DNA of 64,000 nt, taken from positions 51,164 to 115,163 of the IMG/VR virus record IMGVR_UViG_3300032307_000731; one strand, 5' to 3'. The notes below the pieces were generated by a model, which saw only the letters and a list, made by a program, of their open reading frames with translations, was not told the DNA's origin and ran no database searches. The first letter of the stretch is position 1, and each line of letters opens with the position of its first letter. Of this stretch, positions 1,525 through 31,847 are shown piece by piece. The translations under genes and the position numbers were made by a program. Source of the stretch: a virus.

Positions 1525-3057
1525 TTATTGTATATCATATAATAAAGAATCTAATGGAAATAAAAAGTTACCATTAACAATTACAGGTTTTTTATCAAAA
1601 ACTAAAACATTTTTACCTTTTTGAAAAATCATTAAATCCGTTTTATACATTTTAACACTTGCGGTTCCCTCAAGTAAAATACCCTCATCTGTTATCTTTT
1701 TTTCTCGGAAAGGTTTAACTTGAGCGGTTTTAGTTACACCATCTTTGGTTATCTCTAAATCAATTCCACCAATTCCATCTCTTTTACTTCCAAGTTCACC
1801 AACAATTTCAACTTTAACACCTTTACCAAAATATCTTCTTAATATTGAAGCTGTTATCTCTTCACGTTTTGAACCCGCAGCATCCTTAACAATTAAGACC
1901 TTTAACAAGTTTTGAAATGTTGAACTCTCTCGATTAAATATTTTAAATTTATAATAGTTAATTGCTGAAACAAATCTTGTAGCTTCTTTTTTTTGTTCTT
2001 CAATATTTTTATTTCTAAAATTAATTGGTGGTTCTTTTGTTAATTTTGTAATAACTTGATTTAAATCATTTAATAAAATACAGAATGTTGTGTAATTCGT
2101 ATTTAATTTATTAATTATTGACCGACCTGGTCCTTCTAAGTCATAGACACCTGACATTTGGTTATTACTTGGATTTTGAATATAATTTTCGGAAAAAACT
2201 TCTTTCAAAATCCTATCAATACCATGCATATAAATCCATTTAACATCTTCGTTAGTGTTAAATAAAGTTCTATAAAATTCGTTTTCAGATGATGAACACA
2301 TTTCTGATTTACCTTCACTTAATATTAGTCTCATTTTTGTGGACTCTAAAAGTTTTGTTTCAGTTTTCATTTCATATAATTTGGAAACAAAATTCCAATT
2401 CACAACTTTCCAAAAGTTTGAGATATACTCATCTCTCTTATTCCTATACTTTAGATAGTAAGCGTGTTCCCATAAATCTAATCCTAATAGTGGGAATCCA
2501 CCACCTTCGATAACATTCATTAGTGGGTTATCTTGGTTTGGGGTAGACATAATTTTTAAAGTATTTCTTGATGTTAAAACTAACCATACCCAACCCGAAC
2601 CAAATCGTTCTTTTGCAATTTTTTCAAATTCTTTTTTAAAGGTAGGAAAACTACCATATTGTTTGGTAATTTTATTTAAAAGTTCCCCTTTAAGTTTTGT
2701 GGGTGTTGGTGATAACATATTCCAAAACAATGCGTGGTTAAATGCACCTCCGGCATTATTTCGAATTGTTTTATCAAATCGACTAATTGTTTTAATTATT
2801 TGAATTAGTTCTAAATCCCCGTATTTTTTCTTTGAAAGAGCGTCATTCAATTTATCCACGTATCCCTTGTAATGTTTGTTGTAGTGAAATTCCATTGTTT
2901 CGGGGTCAATGAATTGTTTCAAGGCTGAGTAAGAGTAAGGTAATTTTTCAATCCCTATTTTCTTCATTTCTGTAATCAACAGATTTTTTTCCTTAAGTAC
3001 GTGGTTCCCAAGGATTGTTGTTTCTAATTGTTGAATTTTTTGTTCTATTTTTTTCAT
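1525..3057 (-). CDS. Mn/Fe superoxide dismutase fused to a C-terminal PD-(D/E)XK-like domain
   Basis: LPYSYSAL, HYNKH, NNAGGAFNHALFW, FGSGWVWL, NQDNP, DLWEHAYY metal-ligand motifs; ~280 extra C-terminal aa with 'GIDLEI...AQVK'. Confidence 0.9.
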   Translation of the reverse strand: MKKIEQKIQQLETTILGNHVLKEKNLLITEMKKIGIEKLPYSYSALKQFIDPETMEFHYNKHYKGYVDKLNDALSKKKYGDLELIQIIKTISRFDKTIRNNAGGAFNHALFWNMLSPTPTKLKGELLNKITKQYGSFPTFKKEFEKIAKERFGSGWVWLVLTSRNTLKIMSTPNQDNPLMNVIEGGGFPLLGLDLWEHAYYLKYRNKRDEYISNFWKVVNWNFVSKLYEMKTETKLLESTKMRLILSEGKSEMCSSSENEFYRTLFNTNEDVKWIYMHGIDRILKEVFSENYIQNPSNNQMSGVYDLEGPGRSIINKLNTNYTTFCILLNDLNQVITKLTKEPPINFRNKNIEEQKKEATRFVSAINYYKFKIFNRESSTFQNLLKVLIVKDAAGSKREEITASILRRYFGKGVKVEIVGELGSKRDGIGGIDLEITKDGVTKTAQVKPFREKKITDEGILLEGTASVKMYKTDLMIFQKGKNVLVFDKKPVIVNGNFLFPLDSLLYDIQ

Positions 3058-3099
3058 ATGTTTGGATTAACCATTACATATAAATAATCAAAAAATAGT

Positions 3100-4854
3100 T
3101 TAACGACGCATTTCATTAATTCTCTTTAATATTTCTTCCGCGGCATCAGCTGTATTTTGATTATCTCCCATGACGGTGGCTATCACTTGTTTTTTATTAT
3201 GTAGTATGTCGTAAATAATACCCTCAATAGTATTTTCAAAAATTGGGTAATAAACTAATACATTATTTTTTTGACCATAACGATATGCTCGGTCTTCCGC
3301 TTGTGCGTGGTCAGATGGTAAAAATGATAAATCATTAAAGATAACAGCTTCGGCGGATGTTAAAGTAATACCAACACCAGCGGCTTTAATATTACCAACA
3401 AATACTTTTACTTTTTCGTTTTCTTGAAATTGGTCCACACTAAATTGTCTTTCAACCTTTGACATTGACCCATCAAGTTTAACCGCAGCTTTCCCAAAAT
3501 GTTCTGTTATTTTATTTAATGAATCAGTAAAATTACAGAATATAATAACTTTTTTATCTTGTTCTATAATGTTCTCAGCTATCTCGATAGTTTGTGCAAT
3601 TTTTTCATCGGCAATAATTTGACGAACTTTGGTCAGTTTGGTAAATTGTACCGTTAAAGATTTTGATTCTTCCGGATTTTTTTCATACCAATTATAGTAG
3701 TCACCCATTACTTCCTCGTATACTTTTGATTTTAATCTCAAATATACTGGTGTAATAATTTTGTCGGGTAAATCTAATACATTTTCTTTTAACCTTCTTA
3801 AGGTTAGACCTACGGTTCTATCTCTCAATTCTTCAAGGTTTGATGCTCCTTGAACGTTCCAAATTTTTCTTGGACCAACTTTAAATTGAAAACCGGCACA
3901 ATAACGAATAACATATGCCATCCAATTCTTGGCAACAGGTGAATCAATTAAACTAAGTAAATTAAAATAATCGATTGGACGGGATGTCATTGGTGTACCG
4001 GTTAACAACCATAATCTATCAACACTCTTGGTGATGTCGTTAATAAGTTTTGTTCTTTGAGCTTGGGCATTTTTGATATAGTGTGCCTCATCAATAATAA
4101 TTAAATCGAATTTGGACATTAAAATTAACGACTCATCTTTTTTCTTAGGGTCGTGAAAATTTTTAATAATATCGTAATTAACAATAACAAAATCATCTTC
4201 TGTACTAAATTGTTTTCCTTCAGATATGAATATACTTCGGTCTGAATAATTTTCTATTTCTCGTTTCCAGTTAATTTTTAAAGTTGCCGGACAAATTATT
4301 AAAATTTTCTTTGCTCCGGTTTCTAACGCGGCTATAATAGTTGATGTGGTTTTACCAAGACCCATATCATCGGCAAGGATAAACTTTTTATTCTCAACTA
4401 ATTTTTGGATTGCCTCTTTTTGATGTTCAAGAGGTGGACGATTAGAATATTTTGAATAATCTATTACAACATCTTTAACCGAATTATCTTTAATGATTGC
4501 GGCTTTTGGTAACCAAAAGTGGTGGAATTCCTCATTCTCAAATACTTTACCCCAAATATGATACGCCTTTTCTTTATCACATAATAGTTTTTCTACCCAA
4601 ACTTTTTGTGGTATTTCCGTGTATAGTTTATCGTCGGCGAGTTTTTGAGCAAAGTAGGCATCAAGTATTACCCATTTTTTTGCAACTTTGGGTTGTTTGT
4701 CATGATTATTAACAATATATTCTGATTGACTCCTTGTTGGATAAAACTTTCTGTTTAATTGAGATTTACGTTTTAATTCAATTAAATAATTATTACCCCC
4801 TTCATAAGTTTCCAATAGGGATAACGCCTTTGACTCTATACTAGTATTTTCCAT
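3100..4854 (-). CDS. SNF2-family helicase/ATPase (SMARCAL1/HARP-like)
   Basis: ADDMGLGKT, DEAH, LLTGTP, AAGVGITL, QAEDRAYRYGQ motifs. Confidence 0.92.
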   Translation of the reverse strand: MENTSIESKALSLLETYEGGNNYLIELKRKSQLNRKFYPTRSQSEYIVNNHDKQPKVAKKWVILDAYFAQKLADDKLYTEIPQKVWVEKLLCDKEKAYHIWGKVFENEEFHHFWLPKAAIIKDNSVKDVVIDYSKYSNRPPLEHQKEAIQKLVENKKFILADDMGLGKTTSTIIAALETGAKKILIICPATLKINWKREIENYSDRSIFISEGKQFSTEDDFVIVNYDIIKNFHDPKKKDESLILMSKFDLIIIDEAHYIKNAQAQRTKLINDITKSVDRLWLLTGTPMTSRPIDYFNLLSLIDSPVAKNWMAYVIRYCAGFQFKVGPRKIWNVQGASNLEELRDRTVGLTLRRLKENVLDLPDKIITPVYLRLKSKVYEEVMGDYYNWYEKNPEESKSLTVQFTKLTKVRQIIADEKIAQTIEIAENIIEQDKKVIIFCNFTDSLNKITEHFGKAAVKLDGSMSKVERQFSVDQFQENEKVKVFVGNIKAAGVGITLTSAEAVIFNDLSFLPSDHAQAEDRAYRYGQKNNVLVYYPIFENTIEGIIYDILHNKKQVIATVMGDNQNTADAAEEILKRINEMRR

Positions 4855-5222: not shown

Positions 5223-5231
5223 ATTTCTTTA

Positions 5232-5260
5232 AATATAGTTAATAACCGAGTATTTATCAA
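5232..5260 (-). promoter_or_regulatory. Host-type promoter for SET-SNF2
   Basis: Minus strand reads TTGATA-N17-TATATT just upstream of the SET start; same -10 as the promoter at 31887. Confidence 0.6.
5251..5257 (+). promoter_or_regulatory. TATTTAT putative late-promoter motif (one of about 12 copies)
   Basis: Same heptamer precedes most structural transcription units (see findings). Confidence 0.6.
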
Positions 5261-5294
5261 TATATGAAAATAACACAACAAAAACATTATTAAT

Positions 5295-5807
5295 ATGCAA
5301 AAATTAGTTCCAATAACAAGACTAGGTAAATTCTTTGGTGCTGAAGATTATGCTTTGGATATTGGTATGGGTGAAGAATGGTTATTGGGAGATATGAACT
5401 TTACCGTAATTCTTTACCGTATTGATAGATATAAAACCAAAACGGATGATGTTTATGGTGAGGTAACGGAAGATGGTATTCAATTTATGGCACCTGTTGA
5501 ATTACAAGGATTAGTTCAAGTTATGGCACCAACCTCTAAGAATTATGGAAATTCACGAGTTGAATTACAAGAACCTGGTAATATGAAATTTTCATTGTAT
5601 CAAAAAACTCTTGACGATATGGGTGTTGAGATATTCCAAGGGGATTATCTTGGGTATTATGAAACTGAAGATAGAGTTAGATATTATGTTGTAAGTGATG
5701 ATGGATATGTTAGGTCAGATAATAAACATACATATGGAGGATACAAACCATTCTACAGAAGTGTTGTTGCAACTTATGTAAGTGAAAACGAATTTAGAGG
5801 AATATAA
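5295..5807 (+). CDS. Head closure/neck protein (gp14-like)
   Basis: 'VILYRID..KTKTDDVYGE' resembles the gp14/head-closure motif; beta-rich; structural context. Confidence 0.55.
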   Translation: MQKLVPITRLGKFFGAEDYALDIGMGEEWLLGDMNFTVILYRIDRYKTKTDDVYGEVTEDGIQFMAPVELQGLVQVMAPTSKNYGNSRVELQEPGNMKFSLYQKTLDDMGVEIFQGDYLGYYETEDRVRYYVVSDDGYVRSDNKHTYGGYKPFYRSVVATYVSENEFRGI

Positions 5808-6196
5808 TGGAATACGTAATAAAAGAGAGTAAATTATTTAATGCCATCTATCAGTATATTAATGGGTCTTATGATTTGACTAAAATTGATTTTTTTAATC
5901 CAACCACTTGGAATGATGATGAACATGATGACAAAGAAAATCCATATATTACGGAGTTTTTCAATACAGAATATGATGGTGATTATGATGAAAATGGGAT
6001 GTTATTTATTTATATTGTAAAGGAATATTATTCAGATGAACCTTCAAGACAATCTTTTATAAATCAAACACCAATTTTAATTGTTAATGATTATGGAAAA
6101 TTAGAAACAATGTTTGGTGAATATTGGAAAGACCCTTTTAAAAAATGGTTTGAAAATAAATTTGAATTACCTGTTAAAACAATTGTTGCTGATTAA
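5807..6196 (+). CDS. Acidic hypothetical protein, paralog 1
   Basis: MEYVIKESKLFNAIYQY...FGEYWKDPFKKWFENKFELPVK; homologous to the next ORF. Confidence 0.75.
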   Translation: MEYVIKESKLFNAIYQYINGSYDLTKIDFFNPTTWNDDEHDDKENPYITEFFNTEYDGDYDENGMLFIYIVKEYYSDEPSRQSFINQTPILIVNDYGKLETMFGEYWKDPFKKWFENKFELPVKTIVAD

Positions 6197-6597
6197 TGGA
6201 ATACGTAATAACAGAGAGTAGATTATTTAATGCTATCTATCAGTATCTTGATAGTTATCTAAACCCAAACGAAATTGATTGGGTTTATGGAGTTGGTACT
6301 GATGAAGATGGTTATGAGGATATAGATAAGGATGATGAAAACTTTTTAATGTTCTTTAAAGGAGAGTGGAATGGGGAAGATGATACTGACATAGTTTTTT
6401 ATTATTTTGATGTGGATTATTATGAAAATAGTCCATCAACTAAATCGTTTAGAAATCAAGCACCTATTTTAGAAGTTATGGGTAAATATGGTGAACATTT
6501 AGACACTATGTTTGATGACCATTGGGTCGAACCTATGAAAAAATGGGTTCAAGATAATTTTAAATTACCGGTTAAATCGGTATCAACACATTATTAA
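6196..6597 (+). CDS. Acidic hypothetical protein, paralog 2
   Basis: MEYVITESRLFNAIYQY...FDDHWVEPMKKWVQDNFKLPVK. Confidence 0.75.
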   Translation: MEYVITESRLFNAIYQYLDSYLNPNEIDWVYGVGTDEDGYEDIDKDDENFLMFFKGEWNGEDDTDIVFYYFDVDYYENSPSTKSFRNQAPILEVMGKYGEHLDTMFDDHWVEPMKKWVQDNFKLPVKSVSTHY

Positions 6598-6599
6598 TA

Positions 6600-7133
6600 A
6601 TGAAAGTATTAGTTAAAGAATCTCAATTAAGAAGAATATTTGAAATTGTCACAAAAGATAAAGTAATTTGTGACGAGTGTGGTTGGTCATGGGATTTAGC
6701 TGATGGTGGTGACGACCCTTATATTTGTCATAAATGTGGTCATGATAATGAAGAAAAAAAACATATAGGTGATAGAGTTATGGTGTATTATAATCTACAT
6801 AAGCATACTTTTTCAGTTACTTATGATGGTAGGGTTATAACTCATGCTGACTATGTTAAATTAACAGATGTTGAATTTAGGGTAAGACAAGGTGGTAGAG
6901 AAAAAGTTATTAAAGAAAAAAGAAAAAATGTTCATTCGTTTGTGATTGGTACTTTAGTGGATTATTGTAAATACCCATGTGAAAACCTACCGGATGAACC
7001 GAATAATAATATTGTTACATACAACCCTTACAAATATAATACTTATGTAATGAAGGGTACTGAAGAGCCAGTATATCGAGCAAATGAGGTCGATATGATT
7101 AATTTAAAGAATAAATTATTTATAATAAGTTAA
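6600..7133 (+). CDS. Zn-ribbon plus conserved phage domain of unknown function
   Basis: CDEC...CHKC ribbon followed by 'VYYNLHK..FSV...KRKNVHSFVIG...YNPYK'. Confidence 0.7.
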   Translation: MKVLVKESQLRRIFEIVTKDKVICDECGWSWDLADGGDDPYICHKCGHDNEEKKHIGDRVMVYYNLHKHTFSVTYDGRVITHADYVKLTDVEFRVRQGGREKVIKEKRKNVHSFVIGTLVDYCKYPCENLPDEPNNNIVTYNPYKYNTYVMKGTEEPVYRANEVDMINLKNKLFIIS

Positions 7134-7138
7134 AAAAA

Positions 7139-8938
7139 ATGAGATTATTAAAATTCCTTAATCAAAATATATTGAATGAGGTTTCTGAAAAAGTTAAGAA
7201 CCAATTATATTCAAAATTTAAAGATGATACTTCTGATAGCCGTGAAGTTATAGTATCATATATTGATTTATTTGACCGATACAAAGATAGTTTGTCTTCT
7301 GATAAGAGAGATATTACAAAATATTCATATAATGAGTTAAAATCATTAGTGGATTCAAAACAAAATGCCAAACTAATTTCTGACATTTTTAAACAATTTA
7401 AGAAAAAAGAAAAAGGAATTGAAAATAATGTATTAAAAAAATACATTAAAAAGTTTTTGGAAATCCAATCAGAACTTCCAAAAGAGTTTCAAGATATAAC
7501 CAAACTAAAATTTTTACAAGTAGTTAAACTAATTGACAAAGCGTATTCTCAAATATTAACTAATAAGATGATTGAAAAATTTTCTGAAGAGAATCCAAAT
7601 TTAACAAAAGACCAAATTGTTTTTTATCTTGACACATATAATGAGAATTTTGATTTAATTCCATTTGAAACAAAAGGTATTGATAAAATGTCTTTTGATG
7701 AGTTGGAACATTTGTTGGATGGGTTAGAAGGAAAAAAAGACGCTACCGACAAAAGCAAAGAAGAGGTCGGTGACATTGATTTGAAATATGACCAAAACAA
7801 TTTGAAAATATTTGCACCAAAAACAAAAGACCAATGTATTCGTTTAAAAAATGGTAGAGGTTGGTGTACTAGTCGTGAAGGTAGTGGTAATATGTATTAC
7901 AATTATAGATTAGGTAGTGAAAGAACTCTTTATTATGTAATTGATGAAGACAAAAGTTTTGATGATTTAAACTTTGCAACCGTAATTCTTGTTGACCCTA
8001 ATGGAAGAAAATCAATGGCAGATAAATCTAACTCGGGAAAATATGGAGGTAGTACTAATTTACCTTGGGATGAGATTGTTTCAAAAGTGCCAAAACTTAA
8101 AGGGTTAGAAAATATTTTTGTACCGGAACCTTTAACTCAACAGGAAAGAGAATTGATTAATACAGTTAAAAATGTAAGGGTTGGTGATAATCCAATGGAG
8201 TCTTTTGAAAACCCACAACAAGTAGAAATGTGGTTAGAGTATAATAGCCCAAATTTAAACGATATTCAATATTCTAATTTAACTCCGGACTTAAAGAAAA
8301 AATACATTGCGTTAGGAATGAACTTAACTTCTCCAATGATTAAATCTTCCGAACCTGAAGTGTTAAAATATTATATTAGTAAAAAAATTGATGTAATTAA
8401 AAATAAGGACATTAGTAGTTTAACGAATGAAGAAATTTCATTATTAGAAACTCCTATGTTGAAAAAACTTAAAGAAGAGTTAAAACCAAAATTTGCAAAT
8501 TCATTAACTTCTAATGGTGATAGATTAATAATTGATGATTTTGAGAGAGGTTCTGCAGCTAAATTTATTAGATTGTATGGGTTAGAGGATTTATTTTCAA
8601 ATATACCTAAAACTATTACAGAATTCCAAATTCAAAATAAAACACAGAACGTGGTTAATATCACAATCCCTCAAGACATTGGAAGGTTTAAAGATTTGGA
8701 TATGATTATGTTAGATAATTGTATAAGTTCTATACCTGATAGTGTTTGTACTTTACCAAAATTAAGATTTTTATCTTTAATTAACAATGAAAGATTAACA
8801 TCCATTCCTGAATGTATTGCCAATTTACCAACGATAATATTTCTTAATCTTAAAAATAGTAAAAATGTAGTTATACCTGAAAACATTAAACAAAGAGGTA
8901 ACGACATGGGTGGCGGAATGTGGGATTTAGGAGAATAA
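7139..8938 (+). CDS. Multidomain protein with helical repeats, a WCTS-motif domain and C-terminal leucine-rich repeats
   Basis: C-term 'IPQDIGRFKDLDMIMLDN / ISSIPDSVCTLPKLRFLSLINN / LTSIPECIANLPTIIFLNL' LRR periodicity. Confidence 0.75.
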   Translation: MRLLKFLNQNILNEVSEKVKNQLYSKFKDDTSDSREVIVSYIDLFDRYKDSLSSDKRDITKYSYNELKSLVDSKQNAKLISDIFKQFKKKEKGIENNVLKKYIKKFLEIQSELPKEFQDITKLKFLQVVKLIDKAYSQILTNKMIEKFSEENPNLTKDQIVFYLDTYNENFDLIPFETKGIDKMSFDELEHLLDGLEGKKDATDKSKEEVGDIDLKYDQNNLKIFAPKTKDQCIRLKNGRGWCTSREGSGNMYYNYRLGSERTLYYVIDEDKSFDDLNFATVILVDPNGRKSMADKSNSGKYGGSTNLPWDEIVSKVPKLKGLENIFVPEPLTQQERELINTVKNVRVGDNPMESFENPQQVEMWLEYNSPNLNDIQYSNLTPDLKKKYIALGMNLTSPMIKSSEPEVLKYYISKKIDVIKNKDISSLTNEEISLLETPMLKKLKEELKPKFANSLTSNGDRLIIDDFERGSAAKFIRLYGLEDLFSNIPKTITEFQIQNKTQNVVNITIPQDIGRFKDLDMIMLDNCISSIPDSVCTLPKLRFLSLINNERLTSIPECIANLPTIIFLNLKNSKNVVIPENIKQRGNDMGGGMWDLGE

Positions 8939-8956
8939 TTAAAAAAAAAATAAAAA

Positions 8957-9994
8957 ATGCCATTACCAAAGAAAGTAATACCAACATTACCATTAGTACC
9001 ACAGAAGACATTGTCTGCTCGTAGGGAACAATTGTTGGAGTATATCAACAAAGACGGAACTTATTTACCTAAGTCGGTATTACATGCCGATTTGGATAGA
9101 GGAATGTTGGATTTTGTTAAAAACGATTTAGAGGTTATTACCGCAGGAAAAGTGGTTCCAATGGTGGATATTATAATTACAACACAAAACTGGACTCAAT
9201 ATGTTGAGACTGCCTTATTTGTTGATTTAGATTATAACCCATCCCCGCCTTTTATCACGGTAGTTAGAAGTCCTGAAGTTAAGTTTGGTACCAATCCATC
9301 ATTACAATATACAATCCCTGATAGAAAACAATTCTACTACGCGTCTGTTCCAACTTGGAATGGAAACGAACAGGGGATGGATATTTACACAATACCTCAA
9401 CCGGTTCCCGTAGATATCAATTATAGTGTGAAGATTATTTGTAATCGTATGAGAGAACTTAATCAGTTGAATAAAGTGATTATGCAAAAGTTTTCATCAA
9501 GACAAGCTTACACATTTATTAAAGGTCAGTATGTTCCAATCGTAATGAGTAATGTTTCTGATGAATCACAAATGAGTTTGGATTCAAGAAAGTATTATGT
9601 TCAAAGTTATGACTTCACCATGTTAGGTTATTTAATAGATGAAGAAGAGTTTGAAGTTAAACCGGCAATTGCAAGGGTTACTCAACTTATGGAATTAACA
9701 GGAACAGGTAATACCAAAAGAGAAAAATACCCAAAGAACCCGAATGAATTTTTAGAAAATTATTTATTTGTTGTGGGTAATGATAGTTTAAGTGATGTGG
9801 TTGCTTATACCGCAAATCTTTCATTTTCAAATTGGGTTAATGTAGATTCGTATGATGTCTATATTAATGGTGATTATTTTGGTACCGACGTTCAAAATAT
9901 TCAAATAACAACAAATGATATTTTACGAATTGATGTTGTTAAAACTGATGATACTTTAGAGTCAACAATTCAGTTCGAAAACTTACTTGTTTAA
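8957..9994 (+). CDS. Tail terminator/completion protein (T4 gp15-like)
   Basis: 'PVPVDINYSVKIICNRMRELNQL..IMQKF' gp15-like motif; upstream of sheath. Confidence 0.65.
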   Translation: MPLPKKVIPTLPLVPQKTLSARREQLLEYINKDGTYLPKSVLHADLDRGMLDFVKNDLEVITAGKVVPMVDIIITTQNWTQYVETALFVDLDYNPSPPFITVVRSPEVKFGTNPSLQYTIPDRKQFYYASVPTWNGNEQGMDIYTIPQPVPVDINYSVKIICNRMRELNQLNKVIMQKFSSRQAYTFIKGQYVPIVMSNVSDESQMSLDSRKYYVQSYDFTMLGYLIDEEEFEVKPAIARVTQLMELTGTGNTKREKYPKNPNEFLENYLFVVGNDSLSDVVAYTANLSFSNWVNVDSYDVYINGDYFGTDVQNIQITTNDILRIDVVKTDDTLESTIQFENLLV

Positions 9995-10152: not shown

Positions 10153-10272
10153 AGGTAGAAAAAAGGTAGAATTTATTCATACTCTTTATTAATAGATATT
10201 CAAAAGTAAAGTTTTTTCACATTCTATCTAATATTTATCAATAAAATAAATCTGCAATAGAATAATTTAATA

Positions 10273-13494: not shown

Positions 13495-13504
13495 TAAAAA
13501 CCAT

Positions 13505-13529
13505 AAGTGGGGATACGTCCCCACTTTTT
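13505..13529 (+). terminator. Intrinsic terminator after the sheath gene
   Basis: AAGTGGGGA-TACG-TCCCCACTT followed by TTT. Confidence 0.8.
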
Positions 13530-13537: not shown

Positions 13538-14368
13538 ATGAGAAAGATTAGATTAAATGAAGGAATAGATGAAATGGGAACACCCGATATGAAGTATTAT
13601 GCTTTTGATTGGGACGATAATGTTGTTCATATGCCAACTAAGATTATCCTTAAGAATGAAGATGGTGATGAGATAGGTATGAGTACCGATGATTTTGCTG
13701 AGTATAGACATCAAATAGGTGGTGAACCATTTAACTATAAAGGTGAAACTATTGTAGGATATAGTGACGAACCATTTAAAAATTTTCAAACACCCGGTGA
13801 TAAAGATTTTTTAATTGATGCTATGAGGGCTAAATTAGGTCCGGCTTTTGATGATTTTAGAGAAGCTATTAACAATGGTTCAATATTTTCGATTATAACC
13901 GCAAGAGGTCATAATCCTAATACATTAAAAGAGGCTGTATACAATTACATCATATCAGGGTTTAATGGTATTGATAAAGATGAGTTAGTTAAAAACTTAA
14001 GAAAGTATCGAGATATTAATGATGATGAAGACATGAGTGATGATGATTTAATTAAAACTTATCTAAATATGAATAGATATCATCCTGTCTCTTATAATGA
14101 CCCTGAAGGTGCCGCAAATCCTGAAGAGGCGAAAGTTCGTGCGATGGAGAAATTTGTGGAATATATTAAAGAAATGTCATATGATTTAGATAAAAAAGTG
14201 TATCTGAAAAAAGAGGTGAGTAATAATTTTATTCCTACAAAACCGACAATTGGATTTTCTGACGATGACATCCGAAATGTGGAGGTTATGAAAAAACACT
14301 TCAAAGACAAACCGGACAATATTGTTAAAACTTATTCAACAGCAGGAGGAATAAAAAAAGAATATTAA
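13538..14368 (+). CDS. HAD-superfamily phosphatase-like protein
   Basis: Motif I FDWDDN, motif II IITARG, motif III K (EEAKV), motif IV GFSDDD..N. Confidence 0.75.
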   Translation: MRKIRLNEGIDEMGTPDMKYYAFDWDDNVVHMPTKIILKNEDGDEIGMSTDDFAEYRHQIGGEPFNYKGETIVGYSDEPFKNFQTPGDKDFLIDAMRAKLGPAFDDFREAINNGSIFSIITARGHNPNTLKEAVYNYIISGFNGIDKDELVKNLRKYRDINDDEDMSDDDLIKTYLNMNRYHPVSYNDPEGAANPEEAKVRAMEKFVEYIKEMSYDLDKKVYLKKEVSNNFIPTKPTIGFSDDDIRNVEVMKKHFKDKPDNIVKTYSTAGGIKKEY

Positions 14369-23211: not shown

Positions 23212-26200
23212 CTTACAAGCAGACAACAGCGGAGATATTTTAGTTGAGTTTGATTACAACAATATCATTGTAGTTGACCCAAATAAAACAATTGACTCTC
23301 AAGGTAAAATTCAAGAAAGATTGGTTGACCATGAGAGTTTGGTTATGTATGCAAATTTGGAAGCAGAAGTTCTTCCAAGAACTAAACTAGCGGTAGGGGG
23401 TAGTCCTGAAGATAGAATTAGAACCATTTCTGTTGCCAAAATGAATTTTTTAAAACCAACCAAAGATTCGTTTTTAGGTGTGGGTTACTATGATGAGTTA
23501 ACCGGAGAAAATTCAACCAAATTTAAAGGTGCTAATCAAATGATGGAAAAGGCGGTTGACCCAAAAAATGGTGACACCCCTTATATTATTAGTTCTCCTG
23601 CAAATTTAAAAGATGTTTTCGATAATGGTTTATTAGGTATTACACAGATTAATGTTACTACTAATTCATCATTTGTTCCTTCAGTTACAATGGAATTAGA
23701 AGATGTTCAAGGAAAGGCGTTATTTCAATTGGGTAATAATTCACCATACGCGGCGTTTTTTAATTTACCATATCCACCATTTTATTTAACACTTAAAGGT
23801 TACTATGGTCAGGCGATTAGATATCAATTAAATTTAGAGACTTTTAACGCTCGATTTAATTCATTTAGTGGAAATTACCAAGTTAGTTTAAAGTTTAAAG
23901 GGTACAAGTTTAATGTTCTAAATGAAATATCAATGGGACATTTACTTGCAGTGCCACACATGTATGGTCAAAGATTTGACATATCTACAACTCCAGGGGG
24001 TACTCAAGAATCTAACAAACAAGCAGAATCTCAATCTAACGTTGAGGGTAGGGCATCTCAAAATAATGCCTTAAGCCAAGATGAGGTTGTTACTCAAATT
24101 GTTTCAGAAAAAGGTTATCAGAAAATTATTGAGGTTTATAGTGAATATAAATCTAAAGGATTAATTCCTGCTAATTTACCTGAATTAACTTTATTTCAGT
24201 TAATGACTAAATTACAAACATTTGAGAATAATATAATGGCATCTTTTCCTCGTGCAAAAGTTGCTCCTCTTACTAATATTAGAAGTTATAAAGAAGTTCT
24301 GAAACAATACTTTGATGCTGTTAGAGGTTCAAATCTATCATGGTTTAATAAATATTTAAATCCAAAACCTATTGTAACTAATGGGAATGAAAAAATATAT
24401 GTATTTAAAGAACTTAGCCGAGAAGATAAGGACTATGCGATAACATTGTTGGAATCTTATATAAAAAAATTCAATAATGCTTTGTCTGAAAACGCTACTT
24501 TAGGTAAGAATGGTGAATCTCCAATTGTTAATCCAATAGCGTTAAAAACGATTGAGATAGACCCACCAACAGATGAATCTATTAATTGGAAAGAAACTGT
24601 TAGGTTACAAACAGGTAAAGTATTACCAACCATTGAGGATGAACAAAAAGTTAAAGAATTGATTTATCTTACAAAAATACCTGCAGCAGCAAAAACAGAA
24701 ACCAATGGTAAAACATCGGTTGATATAGTTAATACAAAATTTTTCATATTTGAAGGTAATGGTCGATTTGACAATCAAATATCATTAATAGAGGCACAGG
24801 CAAATAAAAAATTGTCAGAATATGAGGCGTCAATCTCAGCTGAATTGTTAAGGAAAATTGAAGATACTGATACAGGTCTTGGATTTAAACCAACGGTTAG
24901 AAATATGATTGCGGTTGTAATGGCTTCAGCAGAAGCGTTTATTCGTTTAATGGATGACGTTCATACTAACGCATGGAATGTAAAATATGACCCAGTTAGA
25001 AAACAGGCGATATTAGATAATCCTTCATCGGCTCCAAGTTCGGAGACAATACAAAAAGTGGCCATTACAACAGAGGCTCAACAATCAAATCAAGGTTTAA
25101 GTAATTCTGAAATACCTGTTTATCCATGGCCGTTATTTTTTGTTGAAACACCTGAAGACACTAAAGGAAGATTTCAATTGAAATACATTGCGGACCCATC
25201 AGTTGTTGACTTAACCCAAGGTTATTTATATGACAAATGGCCTGAGGTTGAATTTGTGGAAGAATATATGATTGGTTTAACTCAAAAATTTAGTCAACCG
25301 TCAGCACCACCACCATTAGATAATCAAAGAGATACTAATAGGATTAATATTAATGCAATTGAATTTCCATCAGAAGGATTACCTTATGTTAACAAAGAAG
25401 AAGTTAAGTTCTTTTATGAAATATGGGAAAGACAATTTTTAACATCACATTATTCAAATTTAATTAGGGCTAATCAAAATCAAATTGATTCATTAATTAA
25501 ATTAAACTCTGAGGCAGAGGTTAATAATATTGTTAAAGGAATTGGTGTGAGTTCTCCATATTTAAGTTTAAAATTAAAAAATTACGATTTAAATGCTTCA
25601 AATTATCAGGAGTTTTTAAAAACTATTTCAAATTCAGGAACCGGTAGAGCTTATCAAGATTATATCAGAGATTTTTTTGTTACACCATACATTAGAAATT
25701 TAACAGAAAATTCTTATAGTATTTTAAGTGTTAACGATATCGGTAAGCTACCTCAATCAAGTACTAAATCAGATGCGTTACAATCTTTATTATTGAATGC
25801 GTCTAATGAGCCATTGGTTATTGATACGTTACCTTATACAGACCCGACATGGTGTTTAAATAATTTAAGTTCAAGTAACAAATCGGTTGGAAATGAAGTT
25901 TTTAATACAAAACAAACTTTAAAAGTTTTTGAACCAAGAAAAGTTATTGCAAATTTCACAGACGTATATGATTTTACTACTAATAGACCTGTAACGAATT
26001 TTTCTTTTTATCAAAATCAAAATCCTACTGTGTTTGCAATACTAGGGTTAAATGGTTTTTACGAGTCTCGAACACCAAAAACTTTTGTGGCGACCGAAGG
26101 GTATTGTGATTACACAACCCCAACAAATGCGTTACCATTTAGAACTACAACTTCAATATTGAACACACCTTATTTTGTTAATTCAATTCAAAATGGTGTG

Positions 26201-29200
26201 CAAAATATTAGAACAAGTGACCCATATCCGTTTGTTCAATCCGCTTATTTGTTTTTGAATTCATTACCATTGGCATCATTAAGAGAACGATATAAAACAT
26301 TGTCAAATGACATTACAACTGACTTAGATTATATATCGTCATGTTTTAATAAGTTTGGTGCAATTCACAAATTACCATATGCTTGGATTTTAAAATATGG
26401 TTCTGTTTGGCATCGTTATAAAAAATATAAGGAGTCAAATACAGATATTTTAGATAGTGCTTGGAAGAATTTTGATTATAGAACCAATTATAGTCCTATT
26501 TTAAGTTCAATTACTCAAACATATGACTTTAAAATAAATGACACACCAACAAGTATTACATTACAACAAGAGGATTCAAATAGTGTTAAAATGCAAATCG
26601 GGTTTTATCCTAAAGTTGTAAATGACTTTAATGTTTTTTATAAAGGTTTTGAGTTATACGATGAATATACTAATAGTGAAATTCAAAGTAGTGTTAATAA
26701 TGGGATGAAAATTTATAATTTTGAAAACTCAAATATTACTGCGAATCGAAGTAATAGAACGTTAAATTTATTTACATATTCTGTATTGTTAGAAAATAAA
26801 GATTTTGGTACTGAAGTAGATTGTGACCCTACTAATAATACTAAAGGTGTTGAATATTTTGTTGTACCTTCTTTTGGTACTTTTTATAACCAAACTCAAA
26901 TTGCTTGTGTTGAAAATTTAACAACAACTAATAATGCTGTAGTTGATTTTACCTTTAATCCAAACATATATAATGGTTCAGTTAGAACTTTATGGTCTGC
27001 ACCAAATTATGGTTATTTTGATAATAGTCAGATTAAATACCCTCAGCCCGACTCATATTTAAATTTTATTAATAATGGAGAGGAACAATCCCCTATGTCG
27101 TTATTAAATGAGGATAAGTATAGTAAAATTGAAGAAATGTTCTCAGTATTTGAGAAGAAAATTTTAGACTCATTCGAACAAGAGTTTTTAAATTTCTGTA
27201 AGCCAATTACTGACATTTCAACAATAAAAGAAACAACTTCTTTTTATACTTCAACAGTTGATGATAATAATAATTTTAAAAATTTCCAATCAGTATTTAG
27301 AGGATTGATGTCCGTTCCTGCAAAACCGGCGGGTGTAAATGAAGACGAATATTTTAATAATACAATTACTAATCAATACAATACATTCCAAGGTGGTATT
27401 AAAGATTTTATGAATTATGATGTTTTATTTAGATATGGTAATCCATCTGATTATAGAAGAAGACTTTTTAACTCTTATTTATCTCATAATAACACTCAAA
27501 AAGTTGTTGACCCTGTTAAATTTAGACCTTACGTTCAAAATACTCTTCCAACAAATGGAGGAACGTTAACGGTTTCTCAATCAAAAGGATTAAATCCTAA
27601 CGCGTGGCTAGCACTTGAAACTGAAGTTGGATTTTCAACAATAAGAAATGTTGAGTATAGTAGTACCGGTTCATATATAACGGATTTCTTTGTAAATAAT
27701 AATATTGAATTTACAACAGATAATGTTGTTTTATTGGCACCAATAATTAAGATGTACGCGACTCAAAAATTGAAAAACCCAACAATTACGGTTGGTCAAT
27801 TCCAAAATCAGATTAATCAGTACTTAAACAATGAAAGTGTATTACAAGACAATTTCTTAAATTTAGTTTTAGATGGTGTTCGTAGACAACTACCTAATCA
27901 ACAACAATTACCGGAAAGAGCTATTAGAAGTGCGATTGATGGAGAACAAAGTAAAGTTGAGAATTACGAAGTGTTCAAATCTCTTAATGATAAATGGATT
28001 GCAGGTGGTGACTATAAAACAAAAACATTATTTGAGGATATGTTATTTTTAGATAGGGCATCAAGAAATATTGGTGATACTATCATATTAAATATCTTTG
28101 ATATACAAGGAATGTTTGGGGTTGGTGGTAAAGATGGTGATTATTCTTTAAACCAAGCAATGAGTGTTTACACCTTTATTAGTGGACTATTGATTAACAA
28201 TAATTTCACAGTAATGAATTTGCCGGCATATATTAATTTTTATAATGTTCAAGATGTTGATGGAACGGTTATTCCAAATAAATCAGAAGGTTCGTTAGGG
28301 TTTGCTAATAGTATGTGGGGAACATTCTTGGATGTTGACTATAGAAAATCAAGTCCAAAAATGGTTTGTTTTTATGTGGGTAAACCATCTCAGTATTTGG
28401 ATTTACCAAAAGGTAATTTTAGATTTAGGGATGATGGTTTTGAAATGAGAAGAGCGTCTGAAAATCCATTAATTGAAAATCAACAGGGTAAAAAAGATTG
28501 GGCTTTATCTAACAAATGTGTTGGTTTTAATGTTGATATTGGAACTCGTAATCAAAGTATATTTTATTCATTTAGTGTTTCCCAAGATAATGGGACTGCC
28601 ACATCAGAATCGATAAATGCTCAAATTAATATGGTTGACCAAGCATCAGGAAAAAATGTTACAACCCAAAACGCAAGTTTATATAATCTATACAAACAGA
28701 GAAGTTATAAATGTTCTGTTGTTTGTTTAGGAAATGCGTTATTACAACCAACCATGTATTTTAATTTAAGACACGTCCCAATGTTTAATGGACCATATAT
28801 GATACAACAAGTTGAACATAGTATTCAACCGGGTCAATTCCAAACATCATTTCAAGGTATTAGACAAGGAGTGTATGATTTACCAGCAATAGATAATTTC
28901 ATTCAAAGTATTAATCAAAACTTATTAACTAAATTAGAATCGATTCTTAAGATTAAGAAAGACGTTATTAATGTGTTATCAGCATCAACAGATTCTAGTA
29001 AGAGTAATAATATTCAACAAAGTTCTAATACGACTAAAGCGGCTTCAAATACTTGTAGTAGTAAGGTTCTTCCGGTATATCTTAATGCCGGATATAATGT
29101 GGTTGATGCAACGAAAACTAGTCCTACTGAGGCAGAATTTGCAGCGGCACTTAAGAGATTGATACCAAATCTACCGGTACTTCAAACTATTATTTATTGT

Positions 29201-30895
29201 ATCTCTTATGCTCGTTCATTTGAAAAAATCAGTAATAGTAAAGCGGGTAAATTTAATGGGTGGAATAATAATTTGGCGTCAGTTTCATTAGATATTGACT
29301 ATGGGGCTACATCAACATCATTCTTAAAAACATATTCTTGTGTTAACGTTCAAACCAATCCATCGACTAATAGTTCATTACCGATGGCAAGTTTTTCAAC
29401 AATTGATACATATATTAATTTTATGAGAGATAGGTTAATTAATAATATAGATAGAGTTTTAGATGATGGTTTGGTAAAATACTATGTTTGTTATTACCCT
29501 AAAAAGAATGTTGCACCAACTTATTACGATACACATATTAATGAGTATAAAACTTTAAAAACTACAATGGAAAAGGCGTTAAATTCCGCTCTTAGTGTTA
29601 AGGTTGCGACTAAAGAAATTGTATCTGATTTATTAAACCAAATAAATGAAACCGATAATAATGGTAGTAGTCCGGGTGTTACACCGACACCTTCACCGAT
29701 TCCACCATTACCTGGCCAATCTTGTCCACCACCGGTTATATCATCGTTCTCACCATTATCAGGTAATACAGGAACGATAGTACAACTTAATGGTAGAAAC
29801 TTTAATGGTGTTAAATCGGTTAAAGTTAACGGAGTTGAGGTTGGAATGACAGGTATAACGGTGTTTAACGATTCAACGATGAGAATTATTACGCCTAAAT
29901 TCTTACCTGATAATGTGGTTAAGAAAGGGTTTATTGTTGTCACTACTGATTTCGGTACATTTACAACAATTGACCAATTTACCTATGACCCTGCATTACC
30001 AGCATCTGCAGCGGCATCACCGGGGGGTTATCAAAATCCTCAAAATCAAACTGCAAATACCCCTCAAACTGAGACTGTAAATACTAATCCTCAGACTGTG
30101 GGTAATATTACTATGATTGGTACCGCGGTTCAGTTAAACGCTAGTAAAACTCAATCATTAAATGTTAAGATAAATCCACAGGAAACTGGGTGGGTATTAT
30201 CACCTAATCCTGATATGAAATATGTAGTGTATGAATTAGAGGAAGTTAACGGTCAAGTAACTCGAAAATATATTTCACAAAGTGTGATAGGTGTTGGAGG
30301 ACAAGTAACAAATAATCAATTCAATGTTACCTTAAGTGATGTTGAATCTTATTTTATAACTAATATCCCTAAAATTGAAGGTAAAACACAGATTGATATT
30401 GTGTTTATTCTTAAAGCATATAAAGGACAAGAACAACCTGTGGTACAACAATTCCCGTTCAGAGTTTGGTATACATTACCAAATCAATCTCAGGTTCCTG
30501 TTGATAATATCCCAACTAGTCAAACATTACCAACATTCCCACCTCAAAAAATTGCTTTAATTAAAATAGGTGAGTCTACTGAGTTACAAGGAAGTGGTTG
30601 GAGTTATTATAATATTAAAAAACCAGATGGAGGATATATTACATATCAATTAACAACTGAAGAACCATTTGAAGAACGAAAAGCTATTAATAATAGAGTT
30701 TTAGATGCGGCGACTTATGATATTGTAAATTTTGGGGGTAGTGGAAGTGTTGCAACTCAATACACTAATTTAATCAATATTAATAAATTAGGAAGTTTTA
30801 GATTACAAGTACAATATAAACCATATGGTAATACATCTCCAATTGGTGGAGAAATTTTAACTCAAACCATATTAAGTGATGTTTTCACTTTATAA
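23201..30895 (+). CDS. Giant baseplate hub protein (gp27/VgrG-like motifs) with a C-terminal IPT/TIG domain
   Basis: 'CSVVCLGNALLQPTMYFNL..PMFNGPYMIQQVEHSIQPGQFQTSFQG' hub motif; 'PVISSFSPLSGNTGTIVQLNGRNF' IPT motif. Confidence 0.65.
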   Translation: MAGNLQADNSGDILVEFDYNNIIVVDPNKTIDSQGKIQERLVDHESLVMYANLEAEVLPRTKLAVGGSPEDRIRTISVAKMNFLKPTKDSFLGVGYYDELTGENSTKFKGANQMMEKAVDPKNGDTPYIISSPANLKDVFDNGLLGITQINVTTNSSFVPSVTMELEDVQGKALFQLGNNSPYAAFFNLPYPPFYLTLKGYYGQAIRYQLNLETFNARFNSFSGNYQVSLKFKGYKFNVLNEISMGHLLAVPHMYGQRFDISTTPGGTQESNKQAESQSNVEGRASQNNALSQDEVVTQIVSEKGYQKIIEVYSEYKSKGLIPANLPELTLFQLMTKLQTFENNIMASFPRAKVAPLTNIRSYKEVLKQYFDAVRGSNLSWFNKYLNPKPIVTNGNEKIYVFKELSREDKDYAITLLESYIKKFNNALSENATLGKNGESPIVNPIALKTIEIDPPTDESINWKETVRLQTGKVLPTIEDEQKVKELIYLTKIPAAAKTETNGKTSVDIVNTKFFIFEGNGRFDNQISLIEAQANKKLSEYEASISAELLRKIEDTDTGLGFKPTVRNMIAVVMASAEAFIRLMDDVHTNAWNVKYDPVRKQAILDNPSSAPSSETIQKVAITTEAQQSNQGLSNSEIPVYPWPLFFVETPEDTKGRFQLKYIADPSVVDLTQGYLYDKWPEVEFVEEYMIGLTQKFSQPSAPPPLDNQRDTNRININAIEFPSEGLPYVNKEEVKFFYEIWERQFLTSHYSNLIRANQNQIDSLIKLNSEAEVNNIVKGIGVSSPYLSLKLKNYDLNASNYQEFLKTISNSGTGRAYQDYIRDFFVTPYIRNLTENSYSILSVNDIGKLPQSSTKSDALQSLLLNASNEPLVIDTLPYTDPTWCLNNLSSSNKSVGNEVFNTKQTLKVFEPRKVIANFTDVYDFTTNRPVTNFSFYQNQNPTVFAILGLNGFYESRTPKTFVATEGYCDYTTPTNALPFRTTTSILNTPYFVNSIQNGVQNIRTSDPYPFVQSAYLFLNSLPLASLRERYKTLSNDITTDLDYISSCFNKFGAIHKLPYAWILKYGSVWHRYKKYKESNTDILDSAWKNFDYRTNYSPILSSITQTYDFKINDTPTSITLQQEDSNSVKMQIGFYPKVVNDFNVFYKGFELYDEYTNSEIQSSVNNGMKIYNFENSNITANRSNRTLNLFTYSVLLENKDFGTEVDCDPTNNTKGVEYFVVPSFGTFYNQTQIACVENLTTTNNAVVDFTFNPNIYNGSVRTLWSAPNYGYFDNSQIKYPQPDSYLNFINNGEEQSPMSLLNEDKYSKIEEMFSVFEKKILDSFEQEFLNFCKPITDISTIKETTSFYTSTVDDNNNFKNFQSVFRGLMSVPAKPAGVNEDEYFNNTITNQYNTFQGGIKDFMNYDVLFRYGNPSDYRRRLFNSYLSHNNTQKVVDPVKFRPYVQNTLPTNGGTLTVSQSKGLNPNAWLALETEVGFSTIRNVEYSSTGSYITDFFVNNNIEFTTDNVVLLAPIIKMYATQKLKNPTITVGQFQNQINQYLNNESVLQDNFLNLVLDGVRRQLPNQQQLPERAIRSAIDGEQSKVENYEVFKSLNDKWIAGGDYKTKTLFEDMLFLDRASRNIGDTIILNIFDIQGMFGVGGKDGDYSLNQAMSVYTFISGLLINNNFTVMNLPAYINFYNVQDVDGTVIPNKSEGSLGFANSMWGTFLDVDYRKSSPKMVCFYVGKPSQYLDLPKGNFRFRDDGFEMRRASENPLIENQQGKKDWALSNKCVGFNVDIGTRNQSIFYSFSVSQDNGTATSESINAQINMVDQASGKNVTTQNASLYNLYKQRSYKCSVVCLGNALLQPTMYFNLRHVPMFNGPYMIQQVEHSIQPGQFQTSFQGIRQGVYDLPAIDNFIQSINQNLLTKLESILKIKKDVINVLSASTDSSKSNNIQQSSNTTKAASNTCSSKVLPVYLNAGYNVVDATKTSPTEAEFAAALKRLIPNLPVLQTIIYCISYARSFEKISNSKAGKFNGWNNNLASVSLDIDYGATSTSFLKTYSCVNVQTNPSTNSSLPMASFSTIDTYINFMRDRLINNIDRVLDDGLVKYYVCYYPKKNVAPTYYDTHINEYKTLKTTMEKALNSALSVKVATKEIVSDLLNQINETDNNGSSPGVTPTPSPIPPLPGQSCPPPVISSFSPLSGNTGTIVQLNGRNFNGVKSVKVNGVEVGMTGITVFNDSTMRIITPKFLPDNVVKKGFIVVTTDFGTFTTIDQFTYDPALPASAAASPGGYQNPQNQTANTPQTETVNTNPQTVGNITMIGTAVQLNASKTQSLNVKINPQETGWVLSPNPDMKYVVYELEEVNGQVTRKYISQSVIGVGGQVTNNQFNVTLSDVESYFITNIPKIEGKTQIDIVFILKAYKGQEQPVVQQFPFRVWYTLPNQSQVPVDNIPTSQTLPTFPPQKIALIKIGESTELQGSGWSYYNIKKPDGGYITYQLTTEEPFEERKAINNRVLDAATYDIVNFGGSGSVATQYTNLININKLGSFRLQVQYKPYGNTSPIGGEILTQTILSDVFTL

Positions 30896-30927
30896 CATAA
30901 CGATATATTTATAATAAAAACAATTTT

Positions 30928-31152
30928 ATGAACATAAAATCAGCATTAGATAATTATCTTGGGAAATCTACAAGAATTTCTCAAACAGATAATGGAGACG
31001 GAACACAACAGGTTTGTGATTTAGATACCGGAGATTGTTATACAATCAGAGAAAGAGATGGTCTTATTGAACGAGCAGGACACCAAACAACTATTAATAG
31101 AAAAGTTAGAGTTGAAACAGCTGGTGGAATTAAACAATTATTAAACGGATAA
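30928..31152 (+). CDS. Small hypothetical protein
   Basis: 74-aa ORF preceded by TATTTAT; contains C-x6-C. Confidence 0.65.
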   Translation: MNIKSALDNYLGKSTRISQTDNGDGTQQVCDLDTGDCYTIRERDGLIERAGHQTTINRKVRVETAGGIKQLLNG

Positions 31153-31157
31153 TCGAA

Positions 31158-31847
31158 ATGGGTTTAGACAAAAAATTAATACAAGAGATTACAAGATACC
31201 ATAGTATTAATAACTATATTATGGAACAGGAGGCTACCGATGATTTAGCCGCGTTAACAACACCGGCACCTGAAGGGGAGACGCCAGCGGCACCTGCACC
31301 GGCACCATCTGAAGCAATACCACCTGCGGCACCGGGAGATGCGGCCACTACACCACAACCAATTGATGTTGAGACAGACCCTGATGTTGAGAAAATTGAC
31401 GATGAAGGAGAATCTGAAGAAACAACTGATGAAAGTGAAGATAGTGAAGAACTTGAAATTACTGATTTAGTTAATTCTCAAAAAAATATTGAAACAAAAC
31501 AAGATGAATATTTTGAAAACCTATTCAATCAATTATCCAACTTAGAATCTAAATTAGGTGAGATGGATAATGTAATGAACAAATTAAATTCACTTGAAAA
31601 TAAGATTGAAAAATATCGAGAAAAAACTCCTGAAGAAAAACTTGAATTAAGAAGTTATGATTCATATCCATTTAATCAAAAATTATCTCAATTTTTTGAT
31701 GACAAACAAGAAGAGATGGAAAAAACCGGAAAAAATGATTATGTTTTAACCTCAGACGAAGTTGAAGATATAAATGTGAATGATATAAAAAATTCATTCC
31801 AACCTGGTTCTCAAGAAGATGAATATAAAACATCATTCAAACGATAA
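31158..31847 (+). CDS. Acidic Pro/Ala-rich coiled-coil protein (possible scaffold or internal head protein)
   Basis: PAPAP linker, acidic tract, heptad 'LSNLESKLGEMDNVMNKLNSLENKIEK'; LIQE/IMEQ leader. Confidence 0.55.
   Translation: MGLDKKLIQEITRYHSINNYIMEQEATDDLAALTTPAPEGETPAAPAPAPSEAIPPAAPGDAATTPQPIDVETDPDVEKIDDEGESEETTDESEDSEELEITDLVNSQKNIETKQDEYFENLFNQLSNLESKLGEMDNVMNKLNSLENKIEKYREKTPEEKLELRSYDSYPFNQKLSQFFDDKQEEMEKTGKNDYVLTSDEVEDINVNDIKNSFQPGSQEDEYKTSFKR

Follow-up and report, generated by a model that had tools for sequence, protein, structure and literature searches.

Here, we deal with a 64,000-nucleotide stretch of viral DNA (hereafter the window), comprising bases 51164-115163 of the 115,163-bp linear IMG/VR contig IMGVR_UViG_3300032307_000731 (G000), and with a class of short N-terminal leaders (hereafter the tag) found on proteins encoded by this contig and its relatives. 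G000 is a fragment of an uncultured ~300-kb T4-like jumbo myovirus. Our results demonstrate that this lineage uses a small set of interchangeable N-terminal leaders, which head dozens of small proteins that are not otherwise related; the tag is a portable and virus-specific N-terminal element on products of late genes and ends in [ILV]-x-E. The reading that we favour, without yet considering it probable, is that the tag resembles the capsid-targeting sequence (CTS) of phage T4, being a head-loading signal trimmed by the head protease. Bare coordinates below are positions in the window, where genes are named by their starts, and coordinates marked "genome" are positions on G000.

The core evidence for the tag is a DNA pattern fixing only "MKK x1-3 LTESDL", which occurs in more than 119 viral stretches. 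The matches listed comprise 103 open reading frames (ORFs) coding for 99 distinct proteins of at least 60 aa, mostly unrelated to each other; all counts of leader residues given here refer to these listed matches. Their main leader class has the consensus MKKIIRLTESDLTRIVKRVIKEQ, in which positions not fixed by the pattern (R/K, I/L, V/I, K/R, R/K and V/I) are still conserved, P3 is [ILV] in 98 of 98 leaders and P1 is E in 92 of 98. After this Glu, the information content drops from 3.9 to 1.4 and then to <0.5 bits, i.e., conservation stops at [I/L/V]-x-E, and what follows is an acid-rich linker and then unrelated sequence. The leader itself is a basic stretch followed by a predicted amphipathic helix with one hydrophobic stripe, with a net charge of about +4. 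Synonymous codons vary freely at the conserved residues, which indicates selection at the level of the peptide. A scan of 596 Gb of cellular contigs with this pattern gave 89 stretches, 35 of them in frame and only 2 with the full leader, both on Bacteroidota metagenome-assembled genome contigs. A literature search for LTESDL-type strings found no relevant paper.

Short forms of the leader follow MK-h-h-h-[T/K]-E-S-Q-L..h-x-E (h = I/L/V), as in the product of gene 6600, and a second long class follows MK.hIITEEEKNRILGMH.SA....YL.EQ. The hallmark M-[K/R/E]-x(1-3)-h-x(0-1)-h-[T/K/N]-E was matched by 38 of 894 ORF starts in G000 and its relatives G001, G002 and G009, versus 5 of 4103 internal Met contexts and 2-3 matches in two composition-preserving shuffle nulls; this expression was written post hoc, and the figure of 38, inflated by paralogues and orthologs across the four genomes, would be lower if these were collapsed. 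The hallmark bearers include 21 of the 393 ORFs (~5% of genes) of G009, a complete genome of 293,850 bp, and, in G000, genes 5807, 6196, 6600, 13538 and genome 8598-9281(-). A leader profile built from similarly starting ORFs of related genomes, when run on the ORFs of three genomes plus 78 loci, gave matches that were 88% N-terminal, with at most one match in a reversed database; since these matches span 17 cargo families, the tag has support at the level of families. Within G000, only 5807, 6196, 6600 and genome 8598-9281(-) score with this profile (20-30 bits).

The leader classes also replace one another. Two OmpA-like late genes (genome 123-1301 and 1797-2969; L089), lying to the left of the window and right after the location of the capsid gene, start with the second class in the form MIKQ.WNINEDEKNRILNLHES....YL.EQ, a class that relatives also have on other proteins, invariably N-terminal. 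In locus L223, OmpA-like cargo homologous to that of genome 1797 (41% identity, E 2e-24, in an alignment that excludes the leaders) carries the main leader instead. Homologous cargo thus bears either leader class, which makes the leaders swappable modules.

Such evidence speaks against the alternative, namely that there is no functional tag and that N-termini look alike owing to AT-rich N-terminal codon bias, paralogy or chance. This explanation accounts neither for ~10 conserved residues beyond the searched pattern in 98 of the sequences listed, nor for 38 hallmark matches where N-terminal composition controls give 2-3, nor for virus specificity and the swapping of leaders on homologous cargo. 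As an overall account we consider it very improbable; for the main leader class it is refuted by the residues beyond the pattern, the rarity in cellular contigs and the composition nulls. It is nevertheless right for certain details of a sequence-only reading of the window, from which our analysis started. The genes and elements concerned are as follows.

1525-3057, minus strand: 510-aa Fe/Mn superoxide dismutase (SOD) fused to a C-terminal half of no assigned family.
2968-3057, minus strand: 30-aa N-terminal extension of the SOD gene, apparently not of the shared tag class.
5251-5257, plus strand: TATTTAT, late-promoter-like, 44 nt upstream of the tightly packed unit 5295-9994.
5807-6196, plus strand: 129 aa, first paralogue of a small alpha/beta family; its start, MEYVIKESKL, fits the hallmark.
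6196-6597, plus strand: 133 aa, second paralogue, with the start MEYVITESRL.
6600-7133, plus strand: 177 aa, with an N-terminal leader, a Zn-ribbon and a PF25735 (Phage_L5_gp82) domain; the best candidate tag bearer in the window.
6600-6644, plus strand: leader of 6600, short form MKVLVKESQLRRIFE, residues 1-15, ending in I-F-E.
7139-8938, plus strand: 599 aa, with a weak C-terminal region resembling leucine-rich repeats (LRR); its N-terminus, MRLLKFLNQNILNE, falls outside the shared tag.
13538-14368, plus strand: 276 aa, conserved, between the sheath and tube genes; its start, MRKIRLNE, fits the hallmark in a minimal form.
31158-31847, plus strand: 229-aa acidic protein with a conserved 24-aa N-terminal segment followed by a Pro/Ala-rich linker; not the shared tag.
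Genome 8598-9281, minus strand: tagged gene outside the window, starting with MKKIIKLTESDLNKIVKKVLKEQ, with the hallmark and a leader-profile match.

The sequence-only reading had proposed that seven unrelated proteins of the window share a portable leader ending in (I/L/V)-x-E. All seven N-termini are present as quoted, and a portable leader on unrelated late proteins is indeed a real feature of the lineage, larger than proposed, but the listed membership was largely wrong. With the leader profile, 5807, 6196 and 6600 score, while 7139, 13538, the SOD gene and 31158 do not: the score is zero for 7139, SOD and 31158, whose leaders are thus not supported as members of the shared tag class, and 13538 does not score with the long-leader profile. 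Judging from the sequence, the tag would be carried in the window by 6600 and possibly by 13538. Moreover, 5807 and 6196 cannot be counted as unrelated, being tandem paralogues (42% identity, E 2e-27) with leader codons near-identical at the DNA level, so that paralogy explains their likeness; they have only the first residues of the tag in common with it.

The generic (I/L/V)-x-E rule proved to be at chance level, and here the absence of a functional tag is the right explanation, as it is for the SOD, 7139 and 31158 leaders. The motif occurs within the first 30 aa of 34 of 94 ORFs (36%), versus 31% of internal 30-aa windows and an equal composition-based expectation of 31%. When orthologs from two or three relatives were considered, a conserved [ILV]-x-E was found at aa 2-35 in 9 of 51 ORFs and at aa 36-68 in 8 of 51. 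An ungapped all-against-all comparison of G000 N-termini revealed no more similarity than among random internal segments, except for two paralogue pairs. A single genome fragment has too little power for this; the signal of a shared leader emerged only once the sequences of relatives were added.

Gene 6600 is the clearest case. Its PF25735 match (E 1.6e-31, residues 56-168) reaches 109 bits against a Pfam gathering cut-off of 27, its leader scores 28.8 bits with the profile, and it has more than 1400 homologs. The family leader reads MK[IV][IL][IV][TK]E[SE]Q..[RK][IL]xE; across 20 aligned homologs, E15 never varies, E7 and Q9 hardly do, and [IL]-x-E stands at positions 13-15 in all 20. The leader is also kept in homologs that lack the Zn-ribbon or have an inserted domain. 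Some homologs (P0074 and P0085) have an extra domain of ~120 aa or ~75 aa between the leader and the Zn-ribbon, with [IL]-x-E at the junction; the insert of P0074 resembles a small MK.LITESQ..FKYLD domain family. In an AlphaFold2 (AF2) model of the 6600 product, the leader helix (residues 7-18) is unpacked, with a predicted local distance difference test (pLDDT) score of ~50, versus 75-89 for the beta-rich body. The 5807 model (mean pLDDT 87, predicted template-modelling score 0.80) has helix 7-21 at pLDDT >93, which means that this helix belongs to the fold, and only residues 1-6 are free; thus, at most the first six or seven residues of 5807 and 6196 could act as a tag. A Foldseek search of the 6600 and 5807 models against PDB returned nothing at E <= 0.001.

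Regarding the remaining genes, all 22 listed orthologs of 13538 keep a motif h-x-E-G at aa 6-8, in which the hydrophobic residue is I/L/V or, in one ortholog, M. The label of haloacid dehalogenase (HAD) phosphatase, given to 13538 by the sequence-only reading, and its "nuclease" label were not supported when sequences were searched against Pfam, PHROGs and PDB; for 13538 only a D-x-D-like FDWDDN was seen by eye, and the HAD assignment is not confirmed. The SOD domains (Sod_Fe_N, E 1e-21; Sod_Fe_C, E 6e-40) begin at residue 37. The preceding extension is present in all orthologs listed, down to 57% identity, and is variable in sequence; in these listed orthologs it always ends with [IL]-x-E immediately before MKKIGIEKLPY. 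Likewise, distant homologs of 7139 begin with M[KR][FL]..[LI][LI]...I.E, and the N-terminal segment of 31158 ends in Y-I-x-E-Q, ..YI.EQ being kept in both orthologs. As sequences, these [IL]-x-E ends of SOD, 7139 and 31158 are compatible with protease sites, yet such ends occur at only background frequency, and these N-termini have nothing further in common with the tag. A firm LRR label for 7139 drew no support from profile searches, LRR matches staying below Pfam cut-offs.

When might the tagged proteins be made? In G000, the genes for sheath, tube, tape measure, baseplate, adaptor and giant fibre are preceded by TATTTAT at a distance of 11-44 nt (11-41 nt for those from sheath to adaptor), and the replication genes of G000 lack it upstream. 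The idea of TATTTAT-preceded structural units was thereby borne out: 23 of 80 sense-strand copies fall within 60 nt upstream of ORF starts, i.e., in 2.4% of positions, and mostly at structural genes. In the window, the total of 39 copies is not elevated over a shuffle expectation of 48, only the placement before gene starts being significant. Among the matches listed, TATTTAT is found no more than 80 nt before 80 of the 103 tagged genes, often just past a terminator-like hairpin; distances before tagged genes peak at -11..-13 and -21..-26. For comparison, only 26% of all G009 ORFs have it within 60 nt upstream. Within the window, unit 5295-9994 holds 5807, 6196, 6600 and 7139, with a second TATTTAT (7117-7123) before 7139; the SOD gene has a copy at 3080-3086(-), 29 nt upstream; and 31158 lies downstream of 30928, whose TATTTAT is at 30906-30912. 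Taking the motif shared with structural genes as a proxy, tagged proteins would be made when heads are built.

The T4-type protease and the capsid propeptide site on which the packaging idea depends are both encoded in the lineage, namely in relatives retrieved via the 6600 protein. One of these, G001 (199 kb), has genes for a Peptidase_S77 (T4 gp21) protease, a Gp23-type capsid protein, scaffold, portal and terminase in T4 gene order. Every one of the five complete genomes with the tag (294-412 kb) has a Peptidase_S77 gene, as do G001 and 3 of 5 additional fragments. In T4, gp23 loses its first 65 residues to gp21 (PMC9958956), whose cuts follow L/I-x-E (PMC9026906); a BLASTP alignment of T4 gp23 residues 6-125 with the G001 capsid protein places T4 E65|A66 on I-N-E60|A61. 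The proteases of the relatives also keep G-I-L-I-E near the N-terminus, like L-L-I-E in T4 gp21 (PMC9026906).

The T4 CTS, MKTYQEFIAE, is present on IPI/IPII/IPIII and Alt and is removed by the prohead protease gp21 (PMC9026906, PMC3012670, 10.1101/2021.01.19.427310). These 10 aa are the sole conserved part of the T4 internal proteins and suffice to load foreign proteins (PMC3012670, PMC9026906). The tag shares with the T4 CTS the plan of a short N-terminal peptide on otherwise unrelated proteins of one phage, ending in (I/L)-x-E; the phages share with T4 a gp21-family protease and a T4-type capsid protein with its propeptide boundary aligned to the T4 cut site; and the tagged cargoes, like T4 internal proteins, are small and fast-diversifying. 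By analogy, the leader would bind the scaffold core of the assembling prohead, the cargo would become built into the head, and a gp21-type protease would cleave behind the leader Glu, as it does in T4 internal proteins; the freed cargo would then be packaged alongside the DNA and might be ejected upon infection. It is from this comparison that we infer head loading, trimming and ejection.

There are also differences from T4. The tag is 22-32 aa long, about twice the length of the T4 CTS, and comes in several interchangeable classes. Instead of 3-4 tagged genes, there are ~20-30 per genome, mostly in separate late-promoter units. P1' is Gln rather than Ala.

Several observations weigh against head loading and trimming. 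MKKIIRLTESDLTRIVKRVIKEQ has no sequence similarity to MKTYQEFIAE, only the M-K start and the terminal h-x-E being common to both. The residue following the leader Glu is mostly Gln, versus Ala at the T4 gp23 and lineage capsid sites. An [ILV]-x-E end is no proof of a cut site, because an amphipathic helix (hydrophobic at i, i+3 and i+4) often contains it. The 6600 family, at 60-99% identity, is very highly conserved, unlike what would be expected of arms-race cargo, and the motif of 5807/6196 is, in the AF2 model, a buried structural helix and not a structurally separate leader. The hyperplastic regions that hold most tagged genes are far from the head module, and a tagged gene adjoins the protease gene in one sublineage only. 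Capsid and protease genes were not found on the G000 fragment, which is 38% complete (CheckV). Finally, tblastn with the consensus and a 78-aa tagged protein returned no match in 50,697 GenBank phage records, i.e., no cultured relative.

Concerning the position next to the protease, we rejected the possibility that a tagged small gene always occupies the gp67/gp68 position upstream of it: only 6 of 77 scorable loci had one by profile, or ~15 loci if divergent and start-miscalled copies are counted. Most relatives (head modules L107-L186) have a conserved untagged gene of 145-150 aa directly upstream of the protease, at the T4 gp68 position, beginning with MKKGKTSKL…AKC.YGTVD.

The main rival explanation, which we regard as rather unlikely, supposes that the leader is never cleaved and serves as a module for docking or oligomerisation, made up of a short strand and an amphipathic helix, by which diverse late proteins would attach to a shared partner distinct from the prohead core, for example the capsid surface, the neck, the baseplate or tail hub, or a late cytoplasmic complex. 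The predicted helix with its single hydrophobic stripe would suit such a module, and 5807/6196 use the same motif as a packing helix in the AF2 model. It is also important to mention that the tagged gene genome 8598-9281(-) and its G001 counterpart directly follow baseplate-hub/spike genes, that some cargoes are binding domains (PG_binding_1, LysM, OmpA, an adhesin-like domain), and that a small conserved ORF has the motif at its C-terminus. On the other hand, conservation ends exactly at [ILV]-x-E and gives way to a flexible acidic linker, which is more in keeping with a trimming site; a set of 20-30 different tagged proteins per genome is a large number for a single surface site; and a peptidoglycan-binding cargo without a signal peptide would have no target on the outer side of a virion infecting a Gram-negative host. 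The small ORF just mentioned is 47-63 aa long (L049:15151-15342 and 11 similar loci; G001 4309-4452(-)), and its leader-like …NIVISESQLERLIEKIK… stands directly before the stop; this may represent either a leftover of the module or its use at the C-terminus.

With its net charge of ~+4 and hydrophobic face, the leader might alternatively be a basic amphipathic helix directing late proteins to the inner membrane or cell envelope, with no link to the capsid and with possible roles in lysis, envelope remodelling or superinfection exclusion. The late timing of tagged genes and the several peptidoglycan-binding cargoes (PG_binding_1, LysM, OmpA) agree with this, but a cytoplasmic anchor would not take peptidoglycan-binding domains across the membrane, most cargoes are of unassigned or cytoplasmic type (PPK2, Zn-ribbon/gp82-like), and the near-invariant L-T-E-S-D-L core is more specific than usual for membrane helices. 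We therefore hold this explanation to be improbable. As regards export, the leader lacks the uninterrupted hydrophobic core (~10 or more residues) of Sec, Tat and lipoprotein signal peptides; charged residues run through its whole length (K, K, R, E, D, R, K, R, K, E), unlike genuine signal peptides such as that of genome 5843.

Still less probable, in our opinion, is that a modifying enzyme or chaperone encoded by the phage recognises the leader, following the logic of ribosomally synthesised and post-translationally modified peptides (RiPPs). One conserved leader on many unrelated bodies is what such logic would produce; however, radical-SAM (PF04055) occurs in only 1 of 5 complete tag-bearing genomes, versus 5 of 5 for S77, and the tag-rich regions of G009 show no enzyme gene as a conserved neighbour. 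A radical-SAM/SPASM maturase with a RiPP-like leader is not supported by this count of co-encoding genomes.

Other giant phages and contractile machines offer further comparisons with head loading. In phiKZ-like and SPN3US-like phages, propeptides of head and inner-body proteins are cut after Glu by the prohead protease (PMC9026906, PMC10052503). These are also jumbo phages that package many proteins, with processing C-terminal to Glu and few other determinants. To our knowledge, their propeptides share no portable sequence; in the lineage studied here, which is a different one, one near-invariant tag is reused. In the extracellular contractile injection systems of the Photorhabdus virulence cassette (PVC) type, a leader at the N-terminus, tens of residues long, steers payloads of many kinds into a machine with a contractile tail. 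Those signals are disordered and poorly conserved, load the tube lumen and are not known to be linked to a protease; in phages, this lumen is occupied by the tape-measure protein. Tag sequences of unrelated huge phages (MNRYDIALGKKPPP, MNWYK, MEMxIALAA, MKRYI, M(A)KDAxGHGS) have the same architecture, in which a single short tag heads many unrelated bodies, and they differ in sequence and in phage lineage.

The cargoes of the tag are diverse. Among the matches listed, they range from 44 to 506 aa, and 93 of 99 have no Pfam family, the others including LysM, OmpA and PilW_C; PG_binding_1 and PPK2 domains are found on tagged proteins outside this set. In G009, gene 25806-26906 (L312:5806-6906) codes for a PPK2 domain (E 2e-72) behind an N-terminal extension of ~120 aa starting with MRKLLTEVEKIKEIMG; this is a leader-like start on an enzyme, with TATTTAT upstream. 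The number of tagged genes is ~20-30 per genome; G009 has ~28 ORFs with such starts, most of them in the small-gene regions at 1-28 kb and 284-293 kb. Six consecutive genes at G009 288378-291659 (L325) begin with MNLQE.I+KVL+E, a further recurrent class in a hyperplastic region.

Extended to the whole group, the head-loading reading would say, and we put this forward more tentatively than the basic resemblance to the T4 CTS, that 290-410-kb T4-like phages use interchangeable tags to load 20-30 late proteins per genome into the capsid, with S77-type trimming and delivery together with the DNA. In this extended form, the tags would all start with MK-h-h-h-T-E, the long forms would end in [I/L]-x-E-Q, and the cargo would include peptidoglycan binders and PPK2. 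If so, it would far exceed every other CTS-type cargo system in size, and engineering would have a packaging tag ready for use; the T4 CTS principle would reach distant jumbo relatives with longer, modular tags and provide a defined peptide for packaging foreign proteins. Were the tag a head-loading signal, the sequence alone would mark the full set of injected proteins; as almost all of these are of unassigned function, they would lead straight to new proteins for host takeover and counter-defence, in a group of phages abundant in metagenomes and so far without a cultured representative. If instead the tag docks elsewhere, it would represent an undescribed sorting code organising ~5% of the genes of the complete relative G009.

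As for the source genome, G000 has a GC content of 31.7% and carries genes for a long tail sheath, tube, tape measure, baseplate wedge proteins, a head-tail adaptor, replication and ribonucleotide reductase; the closest sheath from an isolate is only 30% identical to that of G000. The contig is colinear with G004, which places the capsid gene just left of the G000 contig start. The host phylum is probably Bacteroidota. The 900-aa gene at genome 5843-8545 (L089) has a signal peptide of Bacteroidota style, which hints at the host phylum, and its N-terminus, judged by eye, resembles a TonB-dependent/SusC-type receptor. Elsewhere on the contig, two tandem 262-aa genes (genome 23769-24557 and 24561-25349), identical over at least the first 35 residues, sit within a glycosyltransferase-rich minus-strand operon. 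Finally, a giant open frame with Gly-X-Y-like repeats and a GC content of 44% occupies 58703-64000(+) and runs past the window end; TATTTAT stands at 58681, 22 nt upstream, and ATG-based ORF calling gives spurious out-of-frame pieces of it.

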